Assembly (NCBI GenBank): GCA_017554565.1
Contig: JAFZID010000197.1
Coordinates: 1 to 43,714 of the forward strand
From: a bacterium
Lineage (GTDB): Bacteria; Auribacterota; UBA3054
DNA length: 43,714 bases
Direction: 5' to 3'
The translations under genes and the position numbers were made by a program. Shown piece by piece: positions 2,351 to 33,968 of this stretch (its first letter is position 1; each line of letters opens with the position of its first letter). The notes below the pieces were generated by a model, which saw nothing but the letters and a program-made list of their open reading frames with translations, was not told the origin of the DNA and searched no databases.

Positions 2351-4848
2351 AGATATCCCCTCTCCTTCGCTTCCTTTTCCGTGGCAGCCCAATCGTTCGT
2401 TCTGCCCAGCGCCTTGAAACACCCGATGCTTTTGGCGTAGGCTTGTTTCACCGCTGACTTTTCCCCCTGGTACATGACGTAAACGCGCTGGTAATAGCCC
2501 AGCGCCTCACCCGGTTTTCCCGCTTTCTGATAACAATCTCCCGCCAGCAATAGCAAAGCGGCTTTTTTCTCAGGAGGAAGCCCCTTCTGCCCCAGAAGCG
2601 CCAGGAACTTCTGCAGCGCGTCCTCCGTTTTCCCTTGTTTGAAAAGCGAAAGGCCCTGCAGCTCGTCCCTGCGGTAAAGGTCCTCCATGCGCGCAAAAGC
2701 TTCTTCGCCTTCCTCCAGATAAATTTCCGCTTCCGCGTATTTTTTCTTTTCCACGCTCATGGCGGCCAAAAAGAGCCAGCCTTCGGAGGAAGCCGGATCT
2801 TTGGGGAATTCTTCCGTCAGATACTTCGCCAAGGCTTCAGCCTCGCTTCCCTGTTTTTCCTCCGCCAGAACGAGCCGGCGCCTCAAGCTTTCCGGCCCCA
2901 GCGTCTGAAACTTCAATTTCCCCAGCCCGGCGTCGTCTTTCAAAAACAAGCAGGCCTTGGCGTAAGATCCCGTTTTGCCTTTCTGCAATTCCACCGCGGC
3001 TTCTTTTTTCAGCGCTTCCTTATAAGCCCCGGCCTCCTCCGCAAACTGAGCTCCCGCGGCCAGCGCCCCAAGCGCTTCCCCCTCCGCAAGGTCGTCCTTG
3101 GTCTTCAGCCAAAGCTTATTCGCCGCGCTCCTGGCTTTTTCCTTTTCCCCCAGGATCCGGCAGGCGCCTAGATAAGCGCTGAGCGCTTCGCCCCTGAAAC
3201 CCGGCGTTCCTTCCGCGAGCAGATACGGCTCCAGCAATTCCACAGCGAGCCTCGGCCTTCCCAACGCTTCGTAAACTTCCGCCGCCTTCAGAAGCGCGTA
3301 GCAGGCGAAATTGTCCGGTCTTTCTTTTTCCCGCGGCAGATTGTCCTTATAGGCCGCCAGCGCTTCCACAAGTTCCCCTGTGGCTCCCAGGGCGTCGCCC
3401 AGGGTGTTCTTCACCTCTTTAGCGTTATCGTACTCGGGGTAGCGCTCCAAGACCGCTCTCAGGGCCTTCTGGGCCCCGGAATAGTCTTCCTCCCGGTAGA
3501 GTATGGCCGCCAATCGGAACTCCACGTCCGCCATATGGGTATTCTTGGGATATTTTTGCTTGAAAGCTTTGAAGGTCGCTTCCGCTTCCTCGTCCAATCC
3601 CTGATAATACGCCAGCATGCCTTTCCAGTACGTCGCCTCTGCCGACAGCTTGTGCTCTTCCCCAAACTCCGCCAGCCAGGCCTCCGTTTCCATAAGAGCC
3701 GCTTTTTCCTCACCCAGGAAACCCAGCGCGCAGGCCGCGTACAGTTTCGCTTCGCCCAGCAATTCGGAGGAAGGATGTTTTTTGGCAAAATCCAGGAACC
3801 TGTCCCGCGCCCTCTGGTATTCCATGGCCCTAAGGGCGCCCTGGGCCGGCAGCAGGGCCAGCGCTTCCAATTCATCGTCTTTAAGCTTTTCTCCTAAAAG
3901 CTCCGCCACACCCTTGTCCAGCCGATCCAGGTAACCGCCTTGCAGACAGGCGTAGCAGCCCAGCTTTTTCAAGCCCACCTTTACGAAATCATTGGTGGTC
4001 ACCCTGACGCCTTCCTCGCAATAGACCGCGCACTCCGGGTAATAGCAGGCGTCGTAACAAGCCCGGGCCAATCTCGCCAGCCTCGCCTCGCCGCAGGACG
4101 CTTTGTCCGCCAGACGGTAAGCCGAGAGCGCGCCGGCGAAATTATTGCTCATGTACATTACGTCCCCCAGCCGCAGCGCCAGATAATTTCGCAAAGCTTC
4201 GGAATCTTCTTTCCTGTTCAGCGCCAGCCCTTCCCTCAGCCACAAAAGCGCAGCGTTCGCCTTCCCGGTTTCCAACAGACACCAGGAAAGATTTAGCGTT
4301 GACAGCGCCCGCAGCTTTTTCACCTCCTTCACTTCTTCCCAATAGGGCAGCGCTTCCTCGTAGCGCCCGGCCTTTGTCAGGGACAAAGCCAGATTCGCTT
4401 TCACCTCCGCCGCCTCGCCAACTCCCGCCTCCAACAGCGCGCGGAAGGTGTCCGCCGCGGACATATAAAGGCCAAGCTCCATTTCCGCCATCCCGAAGCC
4501 CAGGCGGGCGTTCCCGATCTCCGAAAACTCCGGATACTCTTTCCCCACCTTGGCAAACAGATCGGCGGCTTCTTCGAAGCGTTTTATCTTATAAGCCGCC
4601 AGGCCTCCGAAATAGGTCATACGGGGAAAATAGTTCGTCATCTCCTCCTCTTCCCCGTAGCGCGCCAGAAACGTGCGCGCCGCTAAAAAGGCGTTGGTCG
4701 CCTCTCCTCTTTTCAGCGAAGCGTAGGTAAAGCGAAACAGTCCCGCAGAATCGAGCTCGTCAAGATCCCCGGCGCGGCAAAAGCCGCACAAAGCGGCCAA
4801 GACCGCCGCAAGACACAAATCCAATTTCAGTTCGCGCGATAGATCCAC
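2347..4848 (-). CDS. Large tetratricopeptide-repeat protein with signal peptide
   Basis: 833 aa, hydrophobic N-terminus, many TPR-like repeats ending in F/Y-x-x-x-YP (GKEYPEF, KQKYPKN, LERYPEY). Confidence 0.85.
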   Translation of the reverse strand: MDLSRELKLDLCLAAVLAALCGFCRAGDLDELDSAGLFRFTYASLKRGEATNAFLAARTFLARYGEEEEMTNYFPRMTYFGGLAAYKIKRFEEAADLFAKVGKEYPEFSEIGNARLGFGMAEMELGLYMSAADTFRALLEAGVGEAAEVKANLALSLTKAGRYEEALPYWEEVKEVKKLRALSTLNLSWCLLETGKANAALLWLREGLALNRKEDSEALRNYLALRLGDVMYMSNNFAGALSAYRLADKASCGEARLARLARACYDACYYPECAVYCEEGVRVTTNDFVKVGLKKLGCYACLQGGYLDRLDKGVAELLGEKLKDDELEALALLPAQGALRAMEYQRARDRFLDFAKKHPSSELLGEAKLYAACALGFLGEEKAALMETEAWLAEFGEEHKLSAEATYWKGMLAYYQGLDEEAEATFKAFKQKYPKNTHMADVEFRLAAILYREEDYSGAQKALRAVLERYPEYDNAKEVKNTLGDALGATGELVEALAAYKDNLPREKERPDNFACYALLKAAEVYEALGRPRLAVELLEPYLLAEGTPGFRGEALSAYLGACRILGEKEKARSAANKLWLKTKDDLAEGEALGALAAGAQFAEEAGAYKEALKKEAAVELQKGKTGSYAKACLFLKDDAGLGKLKFQTLGPESLRRRLVLAEEKQGSEAEALAKYLTEEFPKDPASSEGWLFLAAMSVEKKKYAEAEIYLEEGEEAFARMEDLYRRDELQGLSLFKQGKTEDALQKFLALLGQKGLPPEKKAALLLLAGDCYQKAGKPGEALGYYQRVYVMYQGEKSAVKQAYAKSIGCFKALGRTNDWAATEKEAKERGYL

Positions 4849-4926: not shown

Positions 4927-8255
<3,329 letters not shown>

Positions 8256-8273
8256 ATTTATTGCGTTGTTTCA

Positions 8274-8501
8274 AATTCGTGGCACAGTGTGCCACGAATT
8301 CAAAAACGCTTAACAGCTTGCAAACGCGTAACTTCAAATTCGTGCCACAGTGTGGCACGAATTCAAAAACGGTTAAACGCTTGCAAACACGTCACATCAA
8401 ATTCGTGGCACAGTGTGCCACGAATTCAACAAAAAGGCCTCAAGTACATAAGTTGTTCATAATTGCCAACTTCAAATTTGTGCCACACTGTGGCACAAAT
8501 T
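8274..8501. repeat. Array of four perfect 27-bp palindromes (13-1-13) with 36/36/48-bp spacers
   Basis: 8274-8300 AATTCGTGGCACA-G-TGTGCCACGAATT; 8337-8363 AATTCGTGCCACA-G-TGTGGCACGAATT; 8400-8426 identical to copy 1; 8475-8501 AATTTGTGCCACA-C-TGTGGCACAAATT. Confidence 0.95.
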
Positions 8502-8633
8502 TGATTTTTGTTTTTCTGTCTCTTTTTTCCCTACACAAATTTACCGAAAAGGAGGACTTGCAACTTTTTTGCTTTTTATACAATGAGGTTAGACAATAAT
8601 ATTTTTAAGCCTTAACAAAGGAGCGTCGTATTT

Positions 8634-9659
8634 ATGAACCCACCAAATTATATATTCGATAAAAACAAATCTGAGAAGATTTATTCCTCCATACGATCTT
8701 TTGTAATCACTGCTCAAAACAAAATATATACAGCTGTTAATTCTGCCATGATTGTCGCATATTGGGAAATTGGAGAACAGATATTAAAACATTGCGGGGA
8801 AAACGATAGAGCAGAATATGGTCAAAACCTCCTTAAATATCTTTCTAGTCGATTAACTCCCGAGTTCGGAAAAGGCTTTGGCGAAAGCAATCTGCGTAGA
8901 ATGCGTCAATTTTATTTAGCATACCCTGTGCGCGATTCTTTATATCCCGAACTTAGTTGGTCGCATTATCGTTTGCTAATGAAGATCACAGATAAAGCTG
9001 CTCGTGATTTCTACACGGAGGAATGCGTCAAGGCCGCCTGGAGCGTTCGGCAGTTGGAGCGGCAGATCAACACGATGTATTATCAGCGGCTTCTCGCCAG
9101 CAAAGACAAAGATGCCGTTAGAGCTGAAATACAAAAAACCGAACCAAAACCGGAATATGAAAAGGTCGTCAAGAATCTTTATGTCATGGAGTTTTTACAA
9201 ATAAAGCCTGACACCAAAGTTTATGAAGAAGAAATTGAGCAGGCGTTAATCGACCACTTGCAGCAATTTCTTTTGGAGCTTGGGCGCGGTTTTTCCCTTG
9301 TCGCCCGGCAAAAGCGTTTTACGCTGAACGGACAGGATTTCTTTATAGATCTGGTGTTTTACAACTATATCCTGAAATGTTTTGTCTTGATCGATTTGAA
9401 AACGACCAAGCTCACGCATCAGGACTTAGGGCAAATGCAAATGTATGTTAATTTCTATACGAGAGAATTGATGAATGAAGGCGACAATCCGCCCATCGGA
9501 ATCGTACTATGTGCCGAGAAAAACGACGCTGTTGTCAAATACACATTGCCCGTAGATAACAACCAGATCTTCGCATCAAAGTTTTTAACCTGCCTTCCTA
9601 CGGAAGAAGAATTAAAAAGAGAATTGCGCCTGGACTCGTTTATAAAAATCGAGAAATAA
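8634..9659 (+). CDS. yhcG: YhcG/DUF1016 family PD-(D/E)XK nuclease
   Basis: AYWEIG, RAEYG, GKGF..SNL..MRQFY, LSWSHY, WSVRQLERQI, FLLELGRGF, IDLVFY..LIDLK, GQMQMY and NPPIGIVLC. AAGGAG RBS at 8618-8623. AT-richer than its flanks. Confidence 0.93.
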   Translation: MNPPNYIFDKNKSEKIYSSIRSFVITAQNKIYTAVNSAMIVAYWEIGEQILKHCGENDRAEYGQNLLKYLSSRLTPEFGKGFGESNLRRMRQFYLAYPVRDSLYPELSWSHYRLLMKITDKAARDFYTEECVKAAWSVRQLERQINTMYYQRLLASKDKDAVRAEIQKTEPKPEYEKVVKNLYVMEFLQIKPDTKVYEEEIEQALIDHLQQFLLELGRGFSLVARQKRFTLNGQDFFIDLVFYNYILKCFVLIDLKTTKLTHQDLGQMQMYVNFYTRELMNEGDNPPIGIVLCAEKNDAVVKYTLPVDNNQIFASKFLTCLPTEEELKRELRLDSFIKIEK

Positions 9660-9664
9660 AAAAG

Positions 9665-10831
9665 CTATCTGCTGCAGATCTCTTCCACCATGTGGACAAA
9701 GTTTTCTTTGCCGGTTTTGATGTTGAGAGAGACTTTGAGATAGTAAACGGGAGGGGGATTCAGTTCGAGGCCGGCTCTCACGGAGAAGCGCACGGCGTCT
9801 TTTTCCGTGATGAGGATAGCCTGGCAGTCGAAGTTTTTGGCGGTCTCGTAGATCTTCTCTATCTCGTAGCGCATGAAGCGGTGATGATCGGCGAAGAAAC
9901 GCTTGGCGTTTATTTTCGCGCCGTTCTTTTCCAGGATAGCGACGAAGCCCTCGGGTTGGGCGATGCCGGTGACGACCATGATGGGAAGGCCCTGGAGAAG
10001 CGAGACGGGAGATTCTTTTTCCGTGTGGACGCTTATGAGTTTGTCGGGCTCGTACTGGCAGGTGAGGATGTCGGCTTCTTTGTTGTAGAGACGGATGTCG
10101 GCGACGAGGTCTTCGTATTTCTCTTCGGTAAGATTTTCGGCTTTGGTGATGAAGATATGGTCGGCCCTGCTTAGGCCCTCTATGGGCTCTCTCAGAAGGC
10201 CGGCTGGCAGGATCCGGCCGTAGCCGAAGGGACAGTTGGCGTCGATCAGGACGATGTCTTTCTGGCGGCGCATTCTCAGGTGCTGCATGCCGTCGTCCAG
10301 GACTATGGTGTCCACGCCGAATTCCCGCATGGCATAGCGGGCTCCCCGCACTCTGTCGGGGTCGGTTATGACCACGACGTTCTTAAGCTCCTTGGCGAGC
10401 ATGTAGGGCTCGTCGCCGGCAATCTTGGGGGATAAGAGCAGGTTCTTGCCGTCGCAGACGACCTTGGTCTTGTTGCTGAAATCCTTGTGCTTCAGCCTGA
10501 AGCGCAAACTCGGAGAATGGGATTTGTAGCCGCGGCTAACGATGGCGACTTTTCTTCCGCCCTTGGACAAGGCCTGGGAAAGCAGCGCCACGACGGGCGT
10601 TTTGCCGGTGCCGCCCACGGTGATGTTGCCGACGCTTATGACGTAGCAGCCGGGCCAGTAGCGTTTGCAGTAGCCCTTTCTGTACATGGCGTTGCGGATG
10701 GAAACGATCCCGCCGTAAAGTTTGCCGAGGACTCTCAGGACAGGCCAGACGAGGTAGCGGCGCCAGGTGGTGTCGTTACCGGAAACGAGCCGTTTCCATT
10801 TCTGCTCTCTTGAGAGTTTGTTTTTTCTCAT
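9665..10831 (-). CDS. lpxK: Tetraacyldisaccharide 4'-kinase
   Basis: ISVGNITVGGTGKTP, SRGY, GDEP, LDDGMQH, LPAGLLREP, F.DHH and TEKDAV motifs. Confidence 0.95.
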   Translation of the reverse strand: MRKNKLSREQKWKRLVSGNDTTWRRYLVWPVLRVLGKLYGGIVSIRNAMYRKGYCKRYWPGCYVISVGNITVGGTGKTPVVALLSQALSKGGRKVAIVSRGYKSHSPSLRFRLKHKDFSNKTKVVCDGKNLLLSPKIAGDEPYMLAKELKNVVVITDPDRVRGARYAMREFGVDTIVLDDGMQHLRMRRQKDIVLIDANCPFGYGRILPAGLLREPIEGLSRADHIFITKAENLTEEKYEDLVADIRLYNKEADILTCQYEPDKLISVHTEKESPVSLLQGLPIMVVTGIAQPEGFVAILEKNGAKINAKRFFADHHRFMRYEIEKIYETAKNFDCQAILITEKDAVRFSVRAGLELNPPPVYYLKVSLNIKTGKENFVHMVEEICSR

Positions 10832-11472
10832 TTCTTTTTGGCTTCCTGCTCGGCGAAGTCTATGAGTTTTCTGGCAACGGAGGCTTTGCTGATCAAGCCC
10901 AGGCGTTCCTTTTCCTTTTTGGGATAAAGGAAAGCGGCGTTCAGTTTCCCTGAGGCGAAGCCGGCCAGGGGCTTGGAGACGTCGTTTGCCACGATCATGT
11001 CGAGGCCTTTGACAAAAAGTTTTCTTTTGGCGGAGGCTTCCATATCCTCCGTTTCCGCCGCGAAGCCAATTATGGTTCTTTTTCCCTTGTCAGGGGAAAG
11101 CGATTTAAGGATGTCTTTCGTGCGGACCAGTTCCAGGATGGATTTCTCGGCGATCTTGTGCTCTTTCTGTTTCAGCTTTTTGGCGGGCTTGAAATCGCTG
11201 ACGGCCGCGGTCATGATGAGGACGTCGCAGTTATTGAATTCCTTCTTCAGAGCCTGGTACATGTCCTCGGCGGAGACGACGGGAATGTATTTGCAGCCTT
11301 TGGGCGGCTTAAGGTTGACGGGCCCGCTGACCAAAACGCACTCATAGCCTCGCTTTATTGCTTCCCTGGCGACGGCGAAGCCCATTTTTCCGGAGCTGGG
11401 ATTGGAGAGGAAACGGACCGGATCGATGTATTCCCTGGTCGGGCCCGCGCTGACTAAAAACTTCAAAGCCAT
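10828..11472 (-). CDS. coaB: Phosphopantothenate-cysteine ligase (stand-alone CoaB)
   Basis: SAGPTREYIDPVRFLSNPSSGKMG, AAVSDF, GFAAET and IVAND. Start taken at ATG 11472 (MALKFLV). Confidence 0.92.
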   Translation of the reverse strand: MALKFLVSAGPTREYIDPVRFLSNPSSGKMGFAVAREAIKRGYECVLVSGPVNLKPPKGCKYIPVVSAEDMYQALKKEFNNCDVLIMTAAVSDFKPAKKLKQKEHKIAEKSILELVRTKDILKSLSPDKGKRTIIGFAAETEDMEASAKRKLFVKGLDMIVANDVSKPLAGFASGKLNAAFLYPKKEKERLGLISKASVARKLIDFAEQEAKKK

Positions 11473-11474
11473 GA

Positions 11475-11996
11475 TTATTTCAACGCTTTCAAGATCTCTT
11501 CCAGAGGAGCGAGTCTGCCCAGGCCGCACTTGCCGCAGGCTAATTCGCCTTCCGTAGGATAAATTACTTCGACGCCTCTGTCTTTCAGTTTCTGGATGTT
11601 TTCTTTCGTGGCAGGGGCCTCCCACATGCCGTCGTTCATGGCCGGCGCCACGATCTTTCTGCCCCTGTGAGCGAGCATTACGGAGCTGGGACCGTCATCG
11701 GCGAAACCGTAAGCCAGCTTGGCGATGAAATCGGCGGAGGCCGGCAGCACTACGGCCGTTTCGCAAAGCTCGGCCAAAGCTACGTGCTCGGGGCGCCAGT
11801 CGGCGGGCTGGGCGAACTGGTCGATATAGACAGGATTTCTGGAGAGCGTTCGGAAGGTCACTTCGCCGACGAATTTCGTCGCGGCTTCCGTCATGGCCAC
11901 ATGCACGTTGAAGCCTTCCTTTACGAGAAGGCGCGTGAATTCACAGGCCTTGTAGGCCGCGATAGAGCCTGTTACGACTAAGAGAATGTCTTTCAT
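11475..11996 (-). CDS. coaC: Phosphopantothenoylcysteine decarboxylase (stand-alone CoaC)
   Basis: VTGSIAAYKA, EHV.LA, APAMN and LACG..GLGRL. Confidence 0.92.
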   Translation of the reverse strand: MKDILLVVTGSIAAYKACEFTRLLVKEGFNVHVAMTEAATKFVGEVTFRTLSRNPVYIDQFAQPADWRPEHVALAELCETAVVLPASADFIAKLAYGFADDGPSSVMLAHRGRKIVAPAMNDGMWEAPATKENIQKLKDRGVEVIYPTEGELACGKCGLGRLAPLEEILKALK

Positions 11997-25948: not shown

Positions 25949-27100
25949 ATGCACTACCAAATAGCGCCTCACGGCAATGAATTGATAAACCGCGTCCTCA
26001 CCGGGGCGCAGAGAGACTTTTGGCAGGAAAAGGCGGAATCTTTGCCCAGCATTACGTTGGACAAAAGGAAAGTTTACGACGTCATGATGATCGCGGACGG
26101 CGCCTACAGCCCCCTGGAGGGCTTCATGGGCTCCGAGGACTACACCAGCGTCCTCAACAAGATGCGCCTGGCCTCCGGCCTGCCCTGGCCAATCCCCATC
26201 GTATTGGGCGTCCATCCCGACAGAGCGGACGAATTCGACGTTTACGGTCACATAGCCCTCAAGGACAAGACCGGCCTGACGCTGGCCATTTTGCATCTTA
26301 CGGAAAAATACAAAGTCAACAAGGATCTTGAGCTGGCTAAGATCTACCGCACCACCAACCCGGACCACCCCAGCGTCAAATATCTCCTGGAGGAAAGGGG
26401 CGACGTTTTGCTGGCCGGCCCCATCGACGTCATCAACCGTCCGGCGGACGACTTCTTCGACACCAACCGCATGACGCCGGCCCAGACCAGGCGCATTTTC
26501 AAGGAACACGGCTGGAGCAGGATCGTGGGTTTCCAGACACACAATCCCATTTTGAGAAGCCACGAATACATGATCAAGACCGCCCTGGAGCTTTGCGACG
26601 GTCTGCTCCTGCATCCCCTGCGCTCCACCCCGCACGCCAACGCCGTGCCCACGGAGCTCAGGATGAAGTGCTACGAGACATTCATAGAAAATTATCTTCC
26701 CGAGGAGCGGGTGCAGCTGGCGGTCTTCCCCATGACCCAGCGCTTCGCCGGCCCCAGGGAGACGGTCCTTCACGCCATCGTGCACAAGAATTACGGCTGC
26801 TCGCATTTCATCGTGGGCTACGACCACGCCGGCTGGAAGGATTACTACAACGCCATCGACACCACCAGGATCTTCAGGAATTTCGGGCCTACGGAGCTTG
26901 GCATCCAGCCCATGTTCTTCGACAGAGTCGTCTATTGCAAGAAGTGCCGCGCCATGGTCACCGCCAAGACCTGCCCCCACAGCAGCGGCGACTACGTCAG
27001 CCTCACCTGCACGGAAGTCAGGGAAATGCGCCAGAAGGGCATGCCCATGCCGGAGGAATTCATTCGTCCCGAGATCGCGGAACTGTTGATGATGAAGTAA
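25949..27100 (+). CDS. sat: Sulfate adenylyltransferase (Sat) homolog with degenerate catalytic motifs
   Basis: G.YSPLEGFM, WPIPIVL, HP.V, AGPRE, NYGCSHFIVG.DHAG and Zn site YCKKC..CPH. QTRN/HxxH/GRD motifs are altered. Confidence 0.85.
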   Translation: MHYQIAPHGNELINRVLTGAQRDFWQEKAESLPSITLDKRKVYDVMMIADGAYSPLEGFMGSEDYTSVLNKMRLASGLPWPIPIVLGVHPDRADEFDVYGHIALKDKTGLTLAILHLTEKYKVNKDLELAKIYRTTNPDHPSVKYLLEERGDVLLAGPIDVINRPADDFFDTNRMTPAQTRRIFKEHGWSRIVGFQTHNPILRSHEYMIKTALELCDGLLLHPLRSTPHANAVPTELRMKCYETFIENYLPEERVQLAVFPMTQRFAGPRETVLHAIVHKNYGCSHFIVGYDHAGWKDYYNAIDTTRIFRNFGPTELGIQPMFFDRVVYCKKCRAMVTAKTCPHSSGDYVSLTCTEVREMRQKGMPMPEEFIRPEIAELLMMK

Positions 27101-27101
27101 A

Positions 27102-28319
27102 ATGCCGAAGGTCTTTACTCACGCGACGGGCTGCAAGATAAGCTACTGCGACACGAAGGAAGCGGAGGAGCTTTTTTGCGCGGCGGGCTGGGAGATCGCC
27201 AAACAGCCGGAGGAAGCGGATCTTTTCCTTCTGACGGCCTGCACGGTGACCCAGAAAGCGGACGCCGACTTGAGAAAGGCCGCAAGGCAGCTGAAAAACA
27301 AAAACCCCCGGGCGGAGCTTTGGATCTACGGCTGCTGGGCCAGGGTGGCGGAGAAACACGAGCCCCTGGACCGGGCGGACGCGGTGGTAAAAAGCAAGGA
27401 AGAGCTGGAAGCTCTCCTGGCGGAAAGGAAAGGCGAAGCGCAAGCCAAGCCGGAATTGGAAAGGAACAGGATCTTTGTAAAAGTTCAGGACGGCTGCGAC
27501 CGCTACTGCGCCTACTGCATCGTGCCCTTCGCCCGAGGCAACCCCAGGAGCATGCCCTATGAGGAAATAAAGGGCCGCGTCCTGGAGGCGGAAAGCCTCG
27601 GCCTCAAGGAATGCGTGCTCTCCGGGATCCATCTGGCTTCCTGGCGGGACGGCGAAAAAGACATCGCCGATCTCTGCGCCGCGCTTCTTAAGGACACCTC
27701 CATCCCGCGCCTGCGGATAAGCTCCCTGGACGTGACGGGAGCCGGAGAGAAATTAAGGAAGCTGATGCGGGAGGAGAAAAGGCTCATGCCGCACCTGCAC
27801 ATTCCCCTGCAGTCCGGCAGCGACCGCGTCCTCAGGCTCATGAACCGCCCGCTCGAAAGAGCGCAGCTCCTGGACGCCATGCAAGCTTTCCTGACGGAAG
27901 TTCCCTCTATGATGCTCTCCACGGACATCATCGTGGGCTTCCCGGGAGAAACGGAAGAGGACTTTCAGGAGACCTTGTCCTTCGTAAAGGAGATCCCCTT
28001 CGGCAAGATCCACTACTTCCCCTATTCCCCGCGGCCTGGCACGGCGGCGGCGAAAAGAGTGAAAGACTTCGTTCCGGAAAAAGTGAAGAAGGAGAGGGAA
28101 GAGCGGCTGCGCCAAGCGGCGGCGGAAGCCGCCAGGATCTGCCGGGAGCCTTTTCAGGGTCAGAGCTTCCAGGTCCTGACGGAGACAAAAGGGCCTTCCG
28201 GCTGGCTGGGCTTCACAGAAAATTACTTAAGGGTCTGCTCAAAGAAGGCTGATCTCAAGGCCAACGAGATAGCGACCCTCACCATAGACGGTAAAGAGAC
28301 AGAATTTATTCCTCAATAA
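27102..28319 (+). CDS. mtaB: tRNA methylthiotransferase MtaB (radical SAM, MiaB family)
   Basis: GCK, CTVT..AD, KVQDGCDRYCAYCIVP.ARG, SGIHL, IVGFPGET, FPYSPRPGT.A and G.TENY. Confidence 0.88.
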   Translation: MPKVFTHATGCKISYCDTKEAEELFCAAGWEIAKQPEEADLFLLTACTVTQKADADLRKAARQLKNKNPRAELWIYGCWARVAEKHEPLDRADAVVKSKEELEALLAERKGEAQAKPELERNRIFVKVQDGCDRYCAYCIVPFARGNPRSMPYEEIKGRVLEAESLGLKECVLSGIHLASWRDGEKDIADLCAALLKDTSIPRLRISSLDVTGAGEKLRKLMREEKRLMPHLHIPLQSGSDRVLRLMNRPLERAQLLDAMQAFLTEVPSMMLSTDIIVGFPGETEEDFQETLSFVKEIPFGKIHYFPYSPRPGTAAAKRVKDFVPEKVKKEREERLRQAAAEAARICREPFQGQSFQVLTETKGPSGWLGFTENYLRVCSKKADLKANEIATLTIDGKETEFIPQ

Positions 28320-28322
28320 GCT

Positions 28323-29003
28323 ATGTGGCAAAAAACCAAAGATTTTTTCACCGACCTCCTGTACAGAGTGATCTACTTTTTCGGCTGGTGCGGATTTAGG
28401 CTCCTTTTCTGCATCGGGCACAGGTACAGGATCCACCGCACCGACAGGAAGAAGGCTCTGAAGGGCAGGAAGCAGGGAGTGCTCGTGGTGGCCAACCACG
28501 CCAGCTTCCTGGATCCCGGGATCGTCGGCATCATCTTCTTCCACCGCATCTGGTACCTGGCCAGACAGTCGCTTTTTGAGAACAAGTCTTTCGCCTGGCT
28601 CATCACCGCCGTTGGCGCGCTCCCCATTTCCAGGGAAAAGCTTGACCTTGCCACCCTGCGCCAGGTCAAGACCTACATAGAAGAGGGCCGCGACGTTCTG
28701 CTCTTCCCGGAAGGAACGAGAACGGACGACGGCGAGCTGCAGCCCGGCCAGGCCGGCGTCGGCTTCTTCGCGGACAAAGTGAAGGCGGACATCCTCCCCG
28801 TCTATGTCAAAGGCTCCTTCGAATCCTGGCCCAAGAGCGGAGAATATCACTTCGCCAAGCTTGATTCCATCGTCGGCGACCTGATCCCCTACGAACACTG
28901 GCAGACGCTGCCCAACGGCCGCGAGCGCTACCAAATGATCGCCGACGGCATCATGGAAAAACTCGCGGAACTGAAAAAGGAACTGGAAGAAATAAAGAAG
29001 TGA
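28323..29003 (+). CDS. plsC: 1-acyl-sn-glycerol-3-phosphate acyltransferase
   Basis: NHASFLD and FPEGTR motifs. Confidence 0.88.
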   Translation: MWQKTKDFFTDLLYRVIYFFGWCGFRLLFCIGHRYRIHRTDRKKALKGRKQGVLVVANHASFLDPGIVGIIFFHRIWYLARQSLFENKSFAWLITAVGALPISREKLDLATLRQVKTYIEEGRDVLLFPEGTRTDDGELQPGQAGVGFFADKVKADILPVYVKGSFESWPKSGEYHFAKLDSIVGDLIPYEHWQTLPNGRERYQMIADGIMEKLAELKKELEEIKK

Positions 29004-29956
29004 AGGAAAGACAGGGCATACTTTTCCTCGGCACGCCCCCCATGGCGGCCGACTGCCTGAAAAGGCTCATAAAGGACGGAAGACCGGTCACGGCGGTCAT
29101 CACCCAGCCGGACCGGCCGGTGGGCCGGCACCGGATCGTAACGCCCAGTCCCGTCAAGCAAGCCGCAGAAGAAGCCGGCATCAGCGTTTACACCCCGGAA
29201 AGCCTGAAGACCGAAGAAGTCAAAGCGCTTTTCGAGGAGCTTTCTCCCAAGGTCGCCGTGATCGTGGCCTACGGCAAGATCATCCCCGCGAACCTTCTTA
29301 CCATCCCGGAAAGCTTCATCAATCTGCATTTCTCGCTTCTTCCCCTCTACCGGGGCGCCGCCCCGGTGCAGCGAGCCCTCTATGACGGCAGGACGGTGAC
29401 GGGCGTCTCCATCCAGTACCTGTCGCCAAAATTAGACGCCGGCGACATCATTGCCGAGGCTCCCTTCACAATAAACCCCAAAGACACCACTGAGACGCTT
29501 TGGGAGCGTTCTGTGGCCATCGGAGCGTCGCTTCTGACCAGAGTGGCCGCCAGTCTTCTGGAAGGCCGCCTCCCGGCCACCCCCCAGGACGAATCGAAAG
29601 CCACCTACGCCGCCAAGATGTGCCGCGAGGACGGCTTCATCGACTGGACCTGGAGCGCCAAGATGATCCACGATCACATCAGGGCCTGCAACCCCTGGCC
29701 CGGCGCCGTGACCTGGCGCAAAGGCAAGGAGATCAAGCTCTGGAAAAGCGAGTGGCCCGTCCCCGACCCCGGCCCCCTGGGCATCCCGGGAGAAATAACC
29801 GTCGCCAAAAAAGAACTTTTCATTTCCGCCAGGGACGGCTTCATTAAAATAACGGAGCTTCAGCCCGCCGGCGGAGCCCGCCAGACGGCGGAAGCCTTCG
29901 TCGCCGGCCTCCGGGGCGAAAAAGTTTATCTGGAAAACAAGCCAGAGGGAATCTGA
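29000..29956 (+). CDS. fmt: Methionyl-tRNA formyltransferase
   Basis: FLGTP, TQPDRP.GR, INLHFSLLP.YRGAAPVQ, LDAGDI and PWPGA. Confidence 0.96.
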   Translation: MKERQGILFLGTPPMAADCLKRLIKDGRPVTAVITQPDRPVGRHRIVTPSPVKQAAEEAGISVYTPESLKTEEVKALFEELSPKVAVIVAYGKIIPANLLTIPESFINLHFSLLPLYRGAAPVQRALYDGRTVTGVSIQYLSPKLDAGDIIAEAPFTINPKDTTETLWERSVAIGASLLTRVAASLLEGRLPATPQDESKATYAAKMCREDGFIDWTWSAKMIHDHIRACNPWPGAVTWRKGKEIKLWKSEWPVPDPGPLGIPGEITVAKKELFISARDGFIKITELQPAGGARQTAEAFVAGLRGEKVYLENKPEGI

Positions 29957-31164
29957 TGGCGAAAGTCTCCCCCGCCAGGGCCCTGGCCCTGAAAGCCCTC
30001 CTCGCCTGGCGCCAGGATCCCGAAAGCCATCTTGAGCAGCATCTGAAAGGCCTGCCGGATCCCAAAGACCTCGACCTGGCCTACACCATCTGCCGCGGCG
30101 TCCTGAAAGAAAAGACATTCCTGCAAAAAGTTGTCGGCCGCTACCTCGTCCGCAAAGGCAAAAACCTTCCGCTCCCTGTCGAGCTCATCCTTCTCCTCTC
30201 CGTTTACCAAAGACTTTTTCTGGAAAAGATCCCCCAGTACGCCATCGTTTCCGACGCGGTGGAACTCTGCAAAGAGAAGAAGCCCGCTTTCTCCAACCTC
30301 GTCAACGCCATTCTCAGGAACCTTGAAAGAGATTTGGAATCCGGCTTCGATCCAACAAAAGAACCGCTTTCCCTCGAAGAACGCTATTCCCATCCCAAGG
30401 AACTCATAGACCTCATAAAAGAGGAAACCAAAGACGAAGCGCTAATTGAACAGATCCTCAAATGGGACAACGCAAAACCGAAAGCTTTCCTGAGACGCAA
30501 AAACGGCAGCCACGAAGAATGTCTTGACGTAAAAGCCGTCGTCCAAAGCGACGACTTCAAAAACGGAAAAATCTACTTCATGCAGCTCTGGTCGCAATCC
30601 GTCGCCAACGCCGCGCCTGTAAAAGACGGCGACCAAGTTCTCGACCTCTGCGCCGCCCCCGGCGGCAAAAGCCTCGCCCTTCTCGACAGAGCCAAAATAA
30701 AACTCACCGCCTGCGATTTCTCCGAAACCAGACTCGCGCAATTAAAAGAAAACTTCGCGCGCCTCGGCTACGCAAACGCTCCCAACATCACGATAAAGCA
30801 ACTGGACGCCCGCAACGCAGACCAAGCGTTCCCCCCGGCTTCTTTTGACCTCGTCCTCCTTGACGCCCCCTGCTCCAGTTTAGGAACGATCCAGCGCAAT
30901 CCCGAGCTCAGATGGCGTTTCAAATTAGAGCAGCTCGCTGAATACGCCGCGCTGCAAAAAAGCATTCTCCAAGCCGCAAAAACCCTCGTCGCCCCCCAAG
31001 GCTATCTCCTTTACGCCGTCTGCTCCTTTGCCAAAGCGGAGCGCGAAGCCACAGACCTCCTTCGTCAAGACAAAACCTGGACTCTCGTCAAAGAAAAGCT
31101 CACCTATCCCGGTGAGCAAGACAGTTTCGACGGCGGCTACTACTCCCTCTGGCAAAAGAACTGA
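29956..31164 (+). CDS. rsmB: RsmB/Sun 16S rRNA m5C methyltransferase with NusB-like N-domain
   Basis: LVNAILR, YSHP, LDLCAAPGGKS, LDAPCS..GT..RNPE and YAVCS; follows fmt. Confidence 0.85.
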   Translation: MAKVSPARALALKALLAWRQDPESHLEQHLKGLPDPKDLDLAYTICRGVLKEKTFLQKVVGRYLVRKGKNLPLPVELILLLSVYQRLFLEKIPQYAIVSDAVELCKEKKPAFSNLVNAILRNLERDLESGFDPTKEPLSLEERYSHPKELIDLIKEETKDEALIEQILKWDNAKPKAFLRRKNGSHEECLDVKAVVQSDDFKNGKIYFMQLWSQSVANAAPVKDGDQVLDLCAAPGGKSLALLDRAKIKLTACDFSETRLAQLKENFARLGYANAPNITIKQLDARNADQAFPPASFDLVLLDAPCSSLGTIQRNPELRWRFKLEQLAEYAALQKSILQAAKTLVAPQGYLLYAVCSFAKAEREATDLLRQDKTWTLVKEKLTYPGEQDSFDGGYYSLWQKN

Positions 31165-31314
31165 ACTGGCGCTACAGGAAGAAAGCCTTTTTGGCAAAGG
31201 CCAGAATTTAAAGCCAAGAAACAAGTTATTAATTTTATGCATATTGATTTATAAAAACAAATTTTATATAATAAGTTAAAACCTGGCCCATATTTATCAT
31301 CTGAGGAAAGAGTT

Positions 31315-32481
31315 ATGAAAAAAATATTGCTGCTGTTTAGCCTTTTGATATCTTTCAGTCTTTGCGCGGAAAACGTATCGGTAAAACCTGCGGGTGAAGG
31401 CACCGCGGAAAGCCCTTATTTGTTTGACCGTTTGGAGAACTTCTTCTGGCTCAGAGATAATATCCTGGACATGGATCCTAATGTCCCGGTTTGTTGCAAG
31501 CAGACAAAGGACATCGACGCCAGCGCGACGCAAGAGGGCGGAGATTACACTTGGCAAACGATAAAATTTAACAGCCACATCTTCGCTTATGATGGTCAAT
31601 GTTACACCATCTACGGTCTTGAACCGGAAGATAAAGGAGCTTTGTTCGGGGCCGGGTATCTTCAGCTAAAAAATATCAGGATACAAGGCGCCGAAGGGAA
31701 AAAGACCTGCACCTTGGCAAAAGGCTTAGATTCAGAGCCAAACAAAAAAGGTTATTTTGAGAACTGTCACGTAAAAGGGTTCTTAGTGGAAATGCCGGCT
31801 TTGGCAGACATAGTCAGAGGCAGAGATATTAGAATTGAAAATTGCGTTGCCGAAGCGGATATAGACGAAGGGGAATTAAAAACGAGCGGTGTGTTAATGT
31901 CTCATGTGATTGCGAGGGGGGGAAAAAACATAATAAAAAACACTTGCTTCAAAGGAAAAATAAAAACAAAACCGTTAACGCAAGTTAGCGGTTTGGCTGT
32001 AACGGTGTCGGTGGGAACTGTGTTTAACAACACCGAGCTAACCATAGAAGATTGTTACACAGATTTCGCTGTAGAATGCGATCCGGATGACAGGCACTCC
32101 GTTGCTGGATTAATACGCACAGCGTTCATAGACATGCATACTAACGAAGTTTTGAACATCGAGCGTTGTTATACAGCGTGTGAAACAAGCGAAAAAATAG
32201 ATTATAGCAGCGCTTTAATCTATCAATTGACCAACACTGTCAACACAATAAACATCAAGGATTGTTATTACAGAGAAGCGCCTAATTTCACGGACGATTT
32301 GGCTATTGCCAAGACCGATAATGAAATGAAACAGCGGGCGACGTTTGAAAACTGGGATTTTGAAAACGTTTGGGATATCGACGAAGGCGAAGGAATGCCG
32401 TTCTTAAGATGCGAGATTCCCGAACCATATGTATTGTTTATTGTGCTGCTTTTCGCTTTGTTAAAAAGACTAGAACGATAA
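31315..32481 (+). CDS. Secreted GLUG-like/beta-solenoid protein with PEP-CTERM-like tail
   Basis: Signal peptide, GEGTAESPY, repeated IENC/IEDCY/IERCY, WDFENVW and C-terminal IPEP-hydrophobic-KR. Confidence 0.75.
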   Translation: MKKILLLFSLLISFSLCAENVSVKPAGEGTAESPYLFDRLENFFWLRDNILDMDPNVPVCCKQTKDIDASATQEGGDYTWQTIKFNSHIFAYDGQCYTIYGLEPEDKGALFGAGYLQLKNIRIQGAEGKKTCTLAKGLDSEPNKKGYFENCHVKGFLVEMPALADIVRGRDIRIENCVAEADIDEGELKTSGVLMSHVIARGGKNIIKNTCFKGKIKTKPLTQVSGLAVTVSVGTVFNNTELTIEDCYTDFAVECDPDDRHSVAGLIRTAFIDMHTNEVLNIERCYTACETSEKIDYSSALIYQLTNTVNTINIKDCYYREAPNFTDDLAIAKTDNEMKQRATFENWDFENVWDIDEGEGMPFLRCEIPEPYVLFIVLLFALLKRLER

Positions 32482-32501
32482 AACCGCAAAGGGAAAAAAA
32501 T

Positions 32502-33968
32502 ATGATAAACAGAAGCAAAAAGGCATTCTTGATGTTGTTAATTGCGATTCTGGTAGGCTTGATTCCTTTAACAACATATTCTTCTCAGGATGAATATTTA
32601 AGCATTGGTGGTTCTTCGCATTTGGCAGTTGGAAAACCAAATGCGGCATACAATGTAAGTTATTATGTTAACGGAACGGTTTTTGGTTGTGACTTTTGCG
32701 CTTACGAAATAGTGGATGGCAACATTTATGGCAATTGTCTTGCCGAAAATGATCCCAACGATCAAAATCTTGGCCTTATATTTAATGCGCCTAATTACGA
32801 ATGCATGTTATTCGTTTCGGCATTGCTAAGATATCAGTTAAACACATATCCTTTTACATATCACCAGCTTGGCGACTTTAGGCTTATAAAAGTCCAAAAA
32901 CCGTTTTTACAAACCATGAGAACTGGGTTAAACGGCACGGTTTATGAAAATAACAACACAGCTGTGCCAATACATTGGAATATAGATGACGATGACCGAT
33001 CAGGGTTTGGCGTAGTACATCCTAATATTAGTTACGGAGAAGATTATAGGCAGTACGAATTTCTGTCTGAAAACGGCGTTGACGATGATCTATATTGTAT
33101 ACAAGCTTGCGTAACGAATGTGGATTTAAACACTTCTGGCTGTAATTTAAAAATAAAAACGCCGGATTCAATGCGTTTGTGGTATACCCAAAACAAAAGC
33201 GCACTATGCTGTGACTCCAACAGCGTGTTTGAGACTAATTGTGATATTGTTAATTGGTTCAACACACACGCCAATTCACCAGGGAACAGATTGTATGTTG
33301 AATGGGTAGTTCCGCCTAACACGACAACAAACGAATATATTGAATTTTATTGTAACGGAGTTCAATTTGCCAAATTGCGCTATAAGGGTTATGCGCTTTC
33401 CAATCCGGCGTATATTAATATGCCAACAAAATCTGAAAGAACATTCTTTGAGGGGTTTTGCGAATTAGACGGATGCGAATGGGGAATAAACAAACAGGGC
33501 AGTATGCGGCTTCCTGATCGCAACTCAATCGCGGAAGCGGTTGACCCACACTGGTCACGATATGGGGAAACGTTTGTTGCGACCAAAACAAGTCCTGTGT
33601 GTCCAGACATCTATACTTTGCAGAATGGGGCATACAGTAATTTTGTATGTCGCTGTATGAGCATGGATACTTTCAACAACCATAACTATTTATTTGAAGA
33701 AGCTGACGCTGCTGCCTTTTTCACCATACTTAATTTTTGGACATACAATTATCTTGACATAGATTTGCATGGCGCTCTTGGCGATATTGTTTATTACAGT
33801 GGTCCTTTTGCTGCAACGAGAGTACCTTCCAATTGGCTGACAAATTGCAGACCTTCATGGGATATATTCACAAGCCGTTTTTTCAATCAACCAAAGATTG
33901 TTCACAATCCATATCAACTCGAATCTACCAGAGCCATTTTAGATACATATGTTATAGATTTGCCATAA
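32502..33968 (+). CDS. Secreted hypothetical protein; C-terminus resembles a papain-fold (DUF7689-like) toxin domain
   Basis: Start moved to ATG 32502 (MINRSKKAFLMLLIAILVG). AT-rich. Family resemblance is from motif recall only. Confidence 0.6.
   Translation: MINRSKKAFLMLLIAILVGLIPLTTYSSQDEYLSIGGSSHLAVGKPNAAYNVSYYVNGTVFGCDFCAYEIVDGNIYGNCLAENDPNDQNLGLIFNAPNYECMLFVSALLRYQLNTYPFTYHQLGDFRLIKVQKPFLQTMRTGLNGTVYENNNTAVPIHWNIDDDDRSGFGVVHPNISYGEDYRQYEFLSENGVDDDLYCIQACVTNVDLNTSGCNLKIKTPDSMRLWYTQNKSALCCDSNSVFETNCDIVNWFNTHANSPGNRLYVEWVVPPNTTTNEYIEFYCNGVQFAKLRYKGYALSNPAYINMPTKSERTFFEGFCELDGCEWGINKQGSMRLPDRNSIAEAVDPHWSRYGETFVATKTSPVCPDIYTLQNGAYSNFVCRCMSMDTFNNHNYLFEEADAAAFFTILNFWTYNYLDIDLHGALGDIVYYSGPFAATRVPSNWLTNCRPSWDIFTSRFFNQPKIVHNPYQLESTRAILDTYVIDLP

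Follow-up and report, generated by a model that had tools for sequence, protein, structure and literature searches.

The array and its nuclease gene

Why does a row of perfect palindromes stand directly in front of a nuclease gene? The question is raised by the window analysed here, that is, the whole 43,714-nt (43.7-kb) stretch of contig JAFZID010000197.1 from the Auribacterota assembly GCA_017554565.1. In it, four palindromic units (8274-8504) precede yhcG (8634..9659, + strand), which encodes a 341-aa protein of the DUF1016 family with a DUF1016_N domain, predicted to be a ParB-like helix-turn-helix (HTH) domain, and a YhcG_C PD-(D/E)XK nuclease domain. The original prediction, made from the letters of the window, regarded array and gene as an undescribed array-nuclease system, a description that overstates what the comparisons below reveal. 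We conclude with high confidence that the array consists of extragenic copies of a dyad element specific to DUF1016 genes, carried together with yhcG on a small insertion.

The four units start 63, 63 and 75 nt apart, and no strand is assigned to them or to their spacers. Unit 1 (8274..8300) is a perfect palindrome with two 13-nt arms around a central G (13-1-13); unit 2 (8337..8363), likewise a perfect 13-1-13, has the stem GTGCC/GGCAC, compensated on both arms; unit 3 (8400..8426) repeats the sequence of unit 1; and unit 4 (8472..8504) is a perfect 16-1-16 palindrome with its core at 8475-8501, a central C and the outer pair T/A on both arms. The units differ at two arm positions, each of them mirrored on the opposite arm (GGCACA/TGTGCC versus GCCACA/TGTGGC; TTCG/CGAA versus TTTG/CAAA). 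The four perfect palindromes with compensated arm changes, as first described, are confirmed: a degenerate pattern allowing up to three mismatches matched four times in the window and never in 100 shuffles. Folded as single-stranded DNA, each unit reaches -13.3 to -16.0 kcal/mol (z -7.2 to -8.2), which none of 200 shuffles equalled.

Between the units lie two 36-nt spacers of a short class (8301..8336 and 8364..8399), akin to each other and to spacers of that class in congeners (pairwise identity 73% on average, n=7), and one spacer of a long class (8427..8471). Because units 1 and 2 are 87% alike across their full 63 nt and the spacers are related, the array is a tandem repeat rather than a repeat-spacer array. 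The relatedness of the spacers was missed in the earlier account, as were the tRNA-Arg gene and its terminator in front of the array. The array starts 18 nt past the T run of that terminator and ends 129 nt before the yhcG ATG (8634), in good agreement with the roughly 130 bp given at first. Unit 4 and the T-rich tail behind it (8505-8514) have a terminator-like score on the + strand, so that tandem repeats, a terminator-like site and the nuclease gene follow each other in this order. A putative promoter-like block, TTGCAA-15 nt-TACAAT (8558..8584, + strand), was not called by a consensus scan and is kept in the orthologous loci of two congeners, G005 and G007 (here and below, G denotes genomes of the genus, L individual loci and X metagenome runs).

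Two metagenomic contigs cover parts of the array. One contig of X1, a public gut metagenome, joins 8270 to 8397, and 126 nt corresponding to two units are absent; the joint lies within a 33-nt identical stretch, and true copy-number variation or assembly collapse could account for it. One contig of X6 spans the array; at 8260-8296 it carries two substitutions on the right side of the first unit, to bases of the unit-4 type, which make that unit asymmetric.

A palindrome family in DUF1016 genes across bacteria

The units belong to a palindrome family whose usual place is within DUF1016 genes. When one genome per species was scanned, irrespective of context, with the pattern AATTYG-NNNN-ACASTGT-NNNN-CRAATT, in which four arm pairs are left free, there were at least 124 matches in at least 120 loci, and the record titles of the matches listed name Bacteroidota, Bacillota, Actinomycetota, Cyanobacteria, Pseudomonadota, Chloroflexota and others. 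In 114 of the 124 matches listed, no more than one of the free pairs departed from symmetry, where about 5% would be expected by chance. With 36 diverse YhcG proteins as tblastn queries against the matched loci, 87 of the 124 matches listed fell inside a YhcG hit (58 long, 29 short), 8 more within 500 nt of one and 4 within 4 kb. Five further genomes had 1-4 family sites each, and all four newly fetched symmetric sites were in yhcG paralogues. The intragenic unit has a constant site, directly before the codons for SWSHY, and encodes P-I-x-x-(T/A)-(L/V)-x-x-(E/K/Q)-L.

The same site was examined in a sample that had not been selected for the palindrome, namely 80 metagenome loci retrieved through two peptide motifs of the C-terminal nuclease domain and encoding proteins with 45-80% identity to that of the window. 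The anchor SW[ST]H was present in 71 of them, and the 29 nt before it were read as 14 pairs. The numbers of loci with 0, 1, 2, 3, 4, 5 and 6 mismatched pairs were 8, 20, 16, 9, 7, 3 and 1, and seven had eight or more; hence 63 of the 71 homologues had no more than five mismatches, where random sequence would give about 10.5. Among control 27-mers from the same genes, none of 554 had fewer than five mismatches in 13 pairs, and palindromes with arms of 12 or more and no more than one mismatch occurred in 45 of 79 target windows versus 3 of 158 control windows.

This symmetry is maintained by changes on both arms. In the alignment, 85.9% of the cells pair, versus 69.8% after shuffling and 26-38% with slid partners, and both-sided changes account for 129 cells where 42.7 are expected, a number reached in none of 500 shuffles. 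Pair 8/22, for example, is GC in 25 sequences, CG in 13, UA in 13 and AU in 3. Besides ACA-S-TGT there is a second centre class, GCA-S-TGC, encoding A-(L/V)-R, and the centre therefore covaries as well. Several of the pairs join a third codon position to a first or second one, and relic similarity cannot account for them at this divergence. The mismatches read on the sense strand in the unselected set comprise 38 G.T, 37 A.C and 85 others in 864 cells; this equality of G.T and A.C, with no strand bias, points to a DNA-level dyad rather than an mRNA hairpin. A hairpin of the antisense strand had been considered when the pattern-selected set gave 14 A.C against 3 G.T, and was dropped in view of the 37 against 38 of the unselected set. 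On sequence comparison, then, the palindrome family is a hallmark of DUF1016 genes in different phyla and is normally intragenic.

An insertion between tRNA-Arg and lpxK

How did the units come to stand outside the gene in the window? The left neighbour of the array is a tRNA-Arg gene (anticodon ACG; 8142..8218, + strand), identified by ARAGORN and by Rfam (tRNA, 62.8 bits), with its intrinsic terminator (8226..8255, + strand), a 10-bp GC-rich stem at 8226-8248 followed by a T run. Pattern matches were found in four of eight congeners, with the array following tRNA-Arg in all, and tRNA-Arg precedes the array in all five congener loci examined. In the two congeners G005 and G007, yhcG orthologues of 86% and 90% identity come directly after the array. 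In G004 and G001 the site is empty, the terminator being followed by the end of lpxK within about 10 nt, from which it follows that array and yhcG together (approximately 8256..9655, 1.4 kb, no strand) are an insertion between tRNA-Arg and lpxK. No tRNA repeat was seen at the right end of the window's insertion, and no target duplication at the insertion.

G003 has a different arrangement, in which a 6.9-kb island that lacks yhcG begins on its left with a two-unit array (C22 ~26650-33580; L013, L238). This island ends in a 97-nt direct repeat of the 3' part of the tRNA and the terminator (94% identical), followed by lpxK; it holds five large open reading frames (ORFs) without a Pfam family except for one GLUG motif, and no integrase was found near either end.

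Altogether, 19 units occur in five genomes: four in the window, at least five in G006, whose contig ends inside the array and thus gives a lower bound, four each in G005 and G007, and two in G003. Symmetry is less strict here than within the window, as 14 of the 19 are perfect and five have 1-3 mismatches, and the genus contains the further mirrored stem variants GGCACACA and GGTACACA. In pairwise comparison, identity reaches 97% at the outer (1-6, 22-27) and central (11-13, 15-17) positions, 67-73% in the spacers and 53% at positions 7-10 and 18-21. As these non-coding units are 97% identical at the outer and central positions and yet symmetric, particular bases and symmetry are both kept. 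The proposal that symmetry rather than exact sequence is preserved is thus borne out by the mirrored variants and the two-sided covariation, with the addition that specific outer and central bases are kept too. Two spacer classes of about 36 and 48 nt alternate and produce periods of 63-66 and 75-76 nt, corresponding to ~6.0-6.3 and 7.1-7.2 helical turns; the suggested phasing of the sites by a 63-bp period therefore holds roughly for this genus, whereas other spacings occur elsewhere.

In G007, the whole tRNA-array-yhcG locus was found twice, on C4 (23094-25062) and C6 (13559-15527), identical where compared; contig duplication and genuine duplication are both possible.

Loss of the internal copy

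Within the yhcG gene of the window, the usual site is decayed: at 8927..8953 (+ strand), before LSWSHY, 6 of 13 pairs are mismatched and the encoded peptide reads VRDSLYPEL. The orthologues of G005 and G007 have 8 and 7 of 13 pairs mismatched there, whereas the eight nearest unselected relatives (65-80% identity) have kept the internal copy with 0-4 of 14 mismatched. An independent case is L162, whose gene no longer has the internal copy (11 of 14 pairs mismatched) and is preceded by three units, one of them ending about 24 nt before the start codon. The concurrence of internal loss and upstream copies is clear in the window's genus and L162 only, and across the unselected set the trade-off is not significant, outside copies being present in 3 of 30 loci without and 4 of 50 with an internal unit.

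Several extragenic units match internal ones. The array unit with stem GGCACACA, present in G005, G006 and G007, is identical over 27 nt to the internal palindrome of the L148 yhcG (79% identity); unit 2 of the window equals the internal palindrome of the 60%-identical L034 yhcG except for the centre base; and the upstream copies in L051, L167 and L028 have the same stem as the internal copy.

Units outside the gene and the Escherichia coli locus

A family-type palindrome outside the gene was found in 7 of the 80 unselected loci and in none of the other 73, which makes the upstream arrangement of the window the rarer form. Of the link first proposed between array and YhcG, the association of the palindromes with DUF1016 genes stands and extends across phyla; the upstream position is not the usual one. 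Tandem units in frame are spaced by multiples of three throughout (36, 39, 51, 54, 60, 66, 72, 84, 87 and 138 nt). Copies in the leader end about 15-35 nt before the start codon in L162, L167, L195 and L028, and upstream or distal arrays have spacings of 122 nt in L051, 58-164 in L027 and 23 in L021. Spacings outside the range of the genus thus include 23, 58-71 and 106-164 nt, as well as 36-138 nt in frame. Flanking codons resembling those of yhcG accompany the extragenic units of L100, L071 and L107.

Some individual loci deserve description. In L021 (625-697), from an Armatimonadales metagenome-assembled genome (MAG), three units abut head to tail with a 23-nt period, neighbouring units overlap in their terminal AATT and form GAATTC at their junctions, and a fourth lies 490 nt off within a yhcG fragment. 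In L027, from a Clostridia MAG (2388-3693, 6823-6957), identical units bracket an 840-bp segment with a minus-strand ORF, beyond which six units, of four types by stem or centre, make up an AT-rich array, and two more units stand upstream of yhcG 3 kb away. In L043 (1584-1610) and L089 (1857-1883), a second family palindrome lies about 36 codons upstream within the gene and encodes the first HTH helix, YGEQ-I-x-x-T-(V/L)-S-x-x-L, so that both helices flanking the turn can be palindrome-encoded.

E. coli provides a well-sampled counterpart. In the yhcG gene of strain K-12, three units follow each other in frame every 39 nt (EIHQTMSGEL..IPQTPSAEF..IWQTLSAKS), and the pattern has five sites on the 4.64-Mb chromosome, all at the yhcG locus, where the reversed pattern has none on the chromosome. 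Three sites are within yhcG, one starts 15 nt past its stop codon and one 15 nt past that of gltD. The two extragenic units (3360631-3360657 and 3368969-3368995 of NC_000913.3, L146) bracket gltF-yhcA-yhcD-yhcE-yhcF-yhcG; the left one, whose stem is the same as that of the internal unit of strain F765, is the first feature at the left edge of a gltF-yhcF segment absent from F765, SFE8 and 2011C-3911. Of 5426 complete genomes, 4465 gave a yhcG match, and the cover was 80% or more in 3349. Sampled alleles have one unit (F765, perfect), two (SFE8, period 36) or three, and in 2011C-3911 the homology to yhcG breaks off precisely where the third unit ends. K-12 and SFE8 have G as the centre base of the downstream unit and F765 has C, and F765 differs from K-12 by a 78-nt indel flanked by short TTG repeats. 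A 101-aa 'transposase' beside the truncated E. coli allele had no Pfam match.

Copy number and repeat classes

In the window's genome (2.17-Mb assembly of a gut-metagenome bacterium, 54% G+C), all four pattern matches lie at the array locus; the dispersion through the genome that would mark a repetitive extragenic palindromic (REP)-like repeat or a miniature inverted-repeat transposable element (MITE) unlinked to yhcG is not observed. Looser genome scans add only unrelated palindromes, apart from a near-palindrome akin to the units in a yhcG N-terminal fragment on contig C26 (9-1-9 core, with 2 mismatches in 27 nt), and the other long palindromes of the genome are mostly terminators composed of an A run, a GC stem and a T run. 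Three more DUF1016 relatives are present in this genome (C26:3869-4195, C108:262-1239, C63:5858-6535). ORFs with only the DUF1016 N-terminal part are many in the congeners and are also represented among the PADLOC PDC-S02 models, and several of them end near a unit.

With a period of 63-75 nt and a palindromic repeat of about 30 nt, the array superficially resembles clustered regularly interspaced short palindromic repeats (CRISPR), and one could also think of a dispersed repeat of the REP or bacterial interspersed mosaic element (BIME) type; either assignment is scarcely credible. The repeats are non-identical, and the spacers are homologous to each other, with spacer classes common across species. 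In line with the initial statement that cas genes are lacking, Cas1 (PF01867) had no match in the window's genome, which is 86.55% complete, and the same search was positive in 7 of 14 control genomes. REP/BIME and MITE were rejected because all copies of the genome are at one locus and the five other genomes have 1-4 sites each. The array also differs from integron attC arrays: its spacers of 36-48 nt hold no genes, and no recombinase domain was found by Pfam among its neighbours in the window (tRNA-Arg, a GH2 glycosidase and lpxK), although the genome was not searched for IntI. When Rfam was searched over 7500-9500 with E up to 1, the tRNA alone passed; the best other match over the array scored 33.7 bits against a threshold of 97, and the weak matches (AaHKsRNA41, suhB, miRNA models), all far under threshold, were discarded. 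The array DNA as a query in distant mode matched neither plasmids nor phages.

The YhcG protein

The protein encoded behind the array is a clear member of its family, with PF17761 (DUF1016_N) at 3.4e-45 and 154 bits (cut-off 32.8) and PF06250 (YhcG_C) at 5.1e-55 and 186 bits (cut-off 32.5), which agrees with the nuclease assignment made at the outset; the candidate model PDC-S02 of PADLOC matches it with E 3.3e-140. E215 and K256 are invariant and D239 is nearly invariant in 36 sequences, and all three are present in the window's YhcG. The full-length model has a predicted local distance difference test score (pLDDT) of 84. Its nuclease domain resembles NucS/EndoMS (Foldseek E 7.4e-6; VIA 2vld_B, Z 10.7, root-mean-square deviation (rmsd) 2.9, 106 aligned), Can2/Card1, Shedu SduA and restriction enzymes, and shows a weaker likeness to the Holliday junction resolvase Hjc (1gef_A, Z 5.6). 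Parts of two publications describe DUF1016 genes as enriched beside programmed-inversion targets and present in restriction-modification loci (PMC9881135), and as occurring on mobile elements (PMC4316617).

In the predicted structure, the palindrome-encoded residues 97-108 form the loop between helix 84-96 and helix 109-116. The former (GFSxxNLRxMRxFY) has a recognition-helix-like appearance, and the loop tolerates insertions of 12 to about 60 residues in relatives. For the N-terminal domain (model pLDDT 91.5), a likeness to ParB is suggested by an HTH_ParB match (E 2.4e-4, 21.6 bits, below the cut-off of 22.6), a match to the Noc model (E 0.005), Foldseek ranks 1-10 that are all ParB/Noc (E 0.16-0.54), and VIA comparisons with ParB-parS (6s6h_B, Z 7.0, rmsd 4.8, 103 aligned), Spo0J (1vz0_A, Z 6.8, rmsd 2.9, 91 aligned), KorB-operator (1r71, Z 5.6) and SopB-DNA (3mkw, Z 4.8). 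A symmetric homodimer was predicted with a score of 0.61, the best of three controls being 0.01; the mark applied is reached by 20 of 30 known same-chain pairs and 1 of 23 known single chains, and the pass may reflect likeness to solved dimers. The predicted interface consists of the N-terminal helices 10-54 and 61-78, with runs agreeing in at least 60% of contacts and a partner pLDDT of at least 68.

Possible roles of the units

We tentatively prefer a reading, quite possible though short of probable, in which the units are the cognate DNA sites of a dimeric ParB-like domain of YhcG and serve to hold or regulate the nuclease in cis; in its favour stand the tie of the palindrome to yhcG, the DNA-level covariation, the base conservation of the non-coding copies, the matches between array and internal units, the redundancy of internal and upstream copies, the N-terminal domain with its predicted dimer, and the sopC precedent. 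Most family members have one unit, at times two or three in frame, within the gene, and in the window's genus, where the internal copy is decayed, 2 to 5 or more units stand upstream. An N-terminal YhcG dimer would sit on each palindrome and read the outer AATTYG and the central CA-S-TG, in the manner of SopB on the tandem sopC beside sopB or of ParB on parS, and a potentially harmful nuclease could in this way be tethered or autoregulated in cis. The varying arm positions 7-9 would not be contacted and may stay symmetric through hairpin or cruciform extrusion or through arm-to-arm correction by template switching.

Several observations weigh against this. A dimer bound to duplex DNA needs no complementarity at an uncontacted stem, and the symmetry therefore needs a second cause; moreover, a single array holds several stem variants beside one gene. 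The position of the unit relative to the promoter varies, from upstream in the window through the 5' leader in L162, L167, L195 and L028 and +293 in most genes to past the stop codon in E. coli, which is odd for a simple operator. For 25 of the 124 pattern matches listed, no YhcG hit was found in the locus, and the palindrome is still symmetric; many of these carry a remnant such as PIRDTLCRELS(C/W)SH. Twelve loci from Collinsella (L029, L045, L047, L050, L054, L067, L095, L096, L111, L112, L119 and L121) have units with the stem CGCGAC/GTCGCG (one with GTGAC on the left arm), perfect in 11 and with one mismatch in L045; next to the unit stands a short remnant peptide resembling YhcG, and yhcG is otherwise undetectable in the locus (5-8 kb). 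The likeness to ParB is also weak, as no Foldseek E is 0.001 or lower and no VIA Z is 8 or higher, and the tool warns that a Z below 8 may reflect a common helical arrangement. Searches against PDB sequences gave nothing with YhcG as a single sequence and no ParB with the family profile (best E 0.21, unrelated), the N-terminal CTPase domain of ParB was not found in YhcG by Pfam, and ParA was not found at the locus.

The junctions and copy-number changes seen at units suit a recombination role at least as well as the binding-site reading. The most serious alternative, although doubtful, is accordingly that YhcG and its units form a recombination or mobility module: the units would be hairpin or cruciform substrates of the nuclease, cuts at or near them (for instance, at the AATT ends) would drive local duplication, inversion, deletion and joining of foreign DNA and would produce arrays and island junctions either incidentally or as their very purpose, comparable to attC and to the Neisseria repeats dRS3/NIME (neisserial intergenic mosaic elements). 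Such a role is consistent with the two-unit array at the left end of the G003 island, the K-12 unit at the left edge of a segment other strains lack, the end of homology in 2011C-3911 exactly at a unit, the variable copy number (1-3 in-frame units in E. coli, 2 to at least 5 in congeners), the abutting AATT-joined units of L021, the identical units flanking a gene in L027, the G/C flip of the centre base at the same site between E. coli strains, the many N-terminal-only fragments ending near a unit, and a nuclease domain like NucS/EndoMS, Shedu SduA and, more weakly, Hjc. However, these are anecdotes without counts, and the 73 of 80 unselected loci without an outside unit mostly have one stable internal unit; the 78-nt change between F765 and K-12 lies between TTG repeats with no cut at AATT; no recombinase was seen, nor a target duplication at the window's insertion; and collapse during assembly may explain the 126 nt missing from the X1 contig. 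It is unlikely, although conceivable, that YhcG and palindromes make up a hitherto undescribed kind of self-contained DNA-level module, in which a hairpin or cruciform recognition unit is built into the reading frame of the nuclease, and the nuclease copies, flips and inserts the 27-bp unit locally, in frame in its own loop or in tandem beside the gene, and employs the units as joints for capturing or exchanging foreign DNA; if true, this would be a minimal integrase-free analogue of an integron or homing system, present in K-12 and across phyla.

A functionless origin appears distinctly unlikely. A quasi-palindrome would have arisen in a tolerant loop of an ancestral DUF1016 protein and perpetuated itself, its arms self-corrected by intrastrand template switching, and extragenic copies would be remnants of replaced or decayed alleles. 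Template-switch correction of quasi-palindromes is an established process, and the equal G.T and A.C counts with many transversion mismatches suit a DNA-level mutational process. The unit does encode an interhelix loop that tolerates long insertions, orphan units beside remnant peptides are symmetric without a nearby gene, and some extragenic units (L100, L071, L107) have yhcG-like flanks. Those of the window have none, however; comparable perfect non-terminator palindromes are nearly absent elsewhere in the genome and in the same genes; the excess of identity at outer and central bases of the array over its spacers (97% versus 67-73%) demands selection on sequence beyond symmetry; and internal loss coincides with upstream copies in two independent lineages. 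An RNA-level element, be it an attenuator, a pause or processing site, or a repeat RNA restraining the nuclease as in type III toxin-antitoxin systems, is very improbable. The order of tandem repeats, terminator-like hairpin with T tail (8472-8514) and nuclease gene is indeed that of ToxIN, the unit lies between a promoter-like region and the start codon in the four leader cases (L162, L167, L195, L028), and the E. coli unit past the yhcG stop could act as a terminator. Against this stand the even split of G.U-compatible mismatches between the strands (38 versus 37), a 1-nt centre with perfect Watson-Crick arms, which is typical of DNA dyads, the absence of an Rfam family at threshold, the PD-(D/E)XK nature of YhcG, whose NucS/Shedu-like fold is no ToxN/AbiQ RNase, and the tRNA terminator, which insulates the array from the only clear upstream promoter. 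The processed hairpin RNAs envisaged by the original prediction likewise gain no support from the mismatch counts and from Rfam.

Relation to known systems

The closest counterparts known are site arrays of the ParB family and palindromic repeats in coding sequence; a palindrome within or next to DUF1016 genes was not found described in the literature, in a search that left most subscription journals outside. One parS of Bacillus subtilis is embedded in the coding part of spo0J, and the operator bound by KorB is a palindrome of odd length centred on G/C. The sopC site, as described in part of PMC3177203, comprises 12 direct 43-bp repeats, with an inverted repeat in each that is bound by SopB. 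The window resembles sopC/SopB, ParB-parS, Noc and its binding site NBS, and KorB and its operator OB in having inverted-repeat units in tandem beside a gene with a ParB-type HTH that binds as a dimer, both putative in the case of YhcG, and in having palindromic sites within or beside the gene. Unlike these systems, YhcG has neither ParA nor a CTPase domain, and its putative DNA-binding domain is fused to a PD-(D/E)XK nuclease; its palindrome is longer (27-33 bp), varies in the inner stem with compensation, and occupies a fixed codon position in its own gene.

Coding palindromic repeats such as the Rickettsia palindromic elements are comparable likewise. From the parts of the reports considered, the palindromic amphipathic repeat coding elements (PARCELs; PMC2996958) and the coding palindromes of hairworm mitochondria (PMC6649704) are also in-frame dyads in variable-number tandem copies that encode a tolerant, partly amphipathic segment with nearly the same reading in either orientation. 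In contrast to such repeats, which are spread over many genes, the YhcG unit is confined to one family and its flanks, at one codon position and with 9 codons. In Neisseria dRS3/NIME and integron attC, short palindromic sites alternate with few spacer families and lie at the junctions of inserted DNA, and in attC structure is conserved rather than sequence. The YhcG units differ from both in their few copies at a single locus with no nearby integrase or IS110-type gene, in their gene-free 36-48-nt spacers and in a 1-nt centre with no crossover spacer. ToxIN, a type III toxin-antitoxin system, consists of tandem repeats and a terminator-like hairpin followed by a nuclease gene; YhcG, unlike its toxin, combines PD-(D/E)XK with a putative DNA-binding domain, its repeats bear no sign of RNA-level selection, and in relatives they are mostly intragenic.

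DUF1016/YhcG is among the commonest uncharacterised nuclease families of defence islands, and K-12 has one copy. A palindrome of 27-29 bp at one codon position across phyla is a rare signal, with compensatory substitutions extending to codon positions where saturation would be expected, and it points to a nucleic-acid function overlaid on the coding sequence. It gives a first concrete handle on the family, in the form of a candidate DNA site, five copies of it in K-12 and natural alleles with one, two or three units; should the units be recombination joints, they would constitute a new route of gene capture. For annotation, in-frame repeats and many 'DUF1016 N-terminal' fragments are tied to a DNA element, and palindrome arrays beside DUF1016 genes are neither CRISPR nor REP.

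Other features of the window

Downstream of the insertion, the two halves of coaBC occur as separate overlapping ORFs on the - strand (10828-11996). The Flavoprotein domain lies at 11475-11996 and the DFP domain at 10828-11625, with an overlap of 151 nt; the gene may be frameshifted or truly split, or the assembly may contain a sequencing error here.

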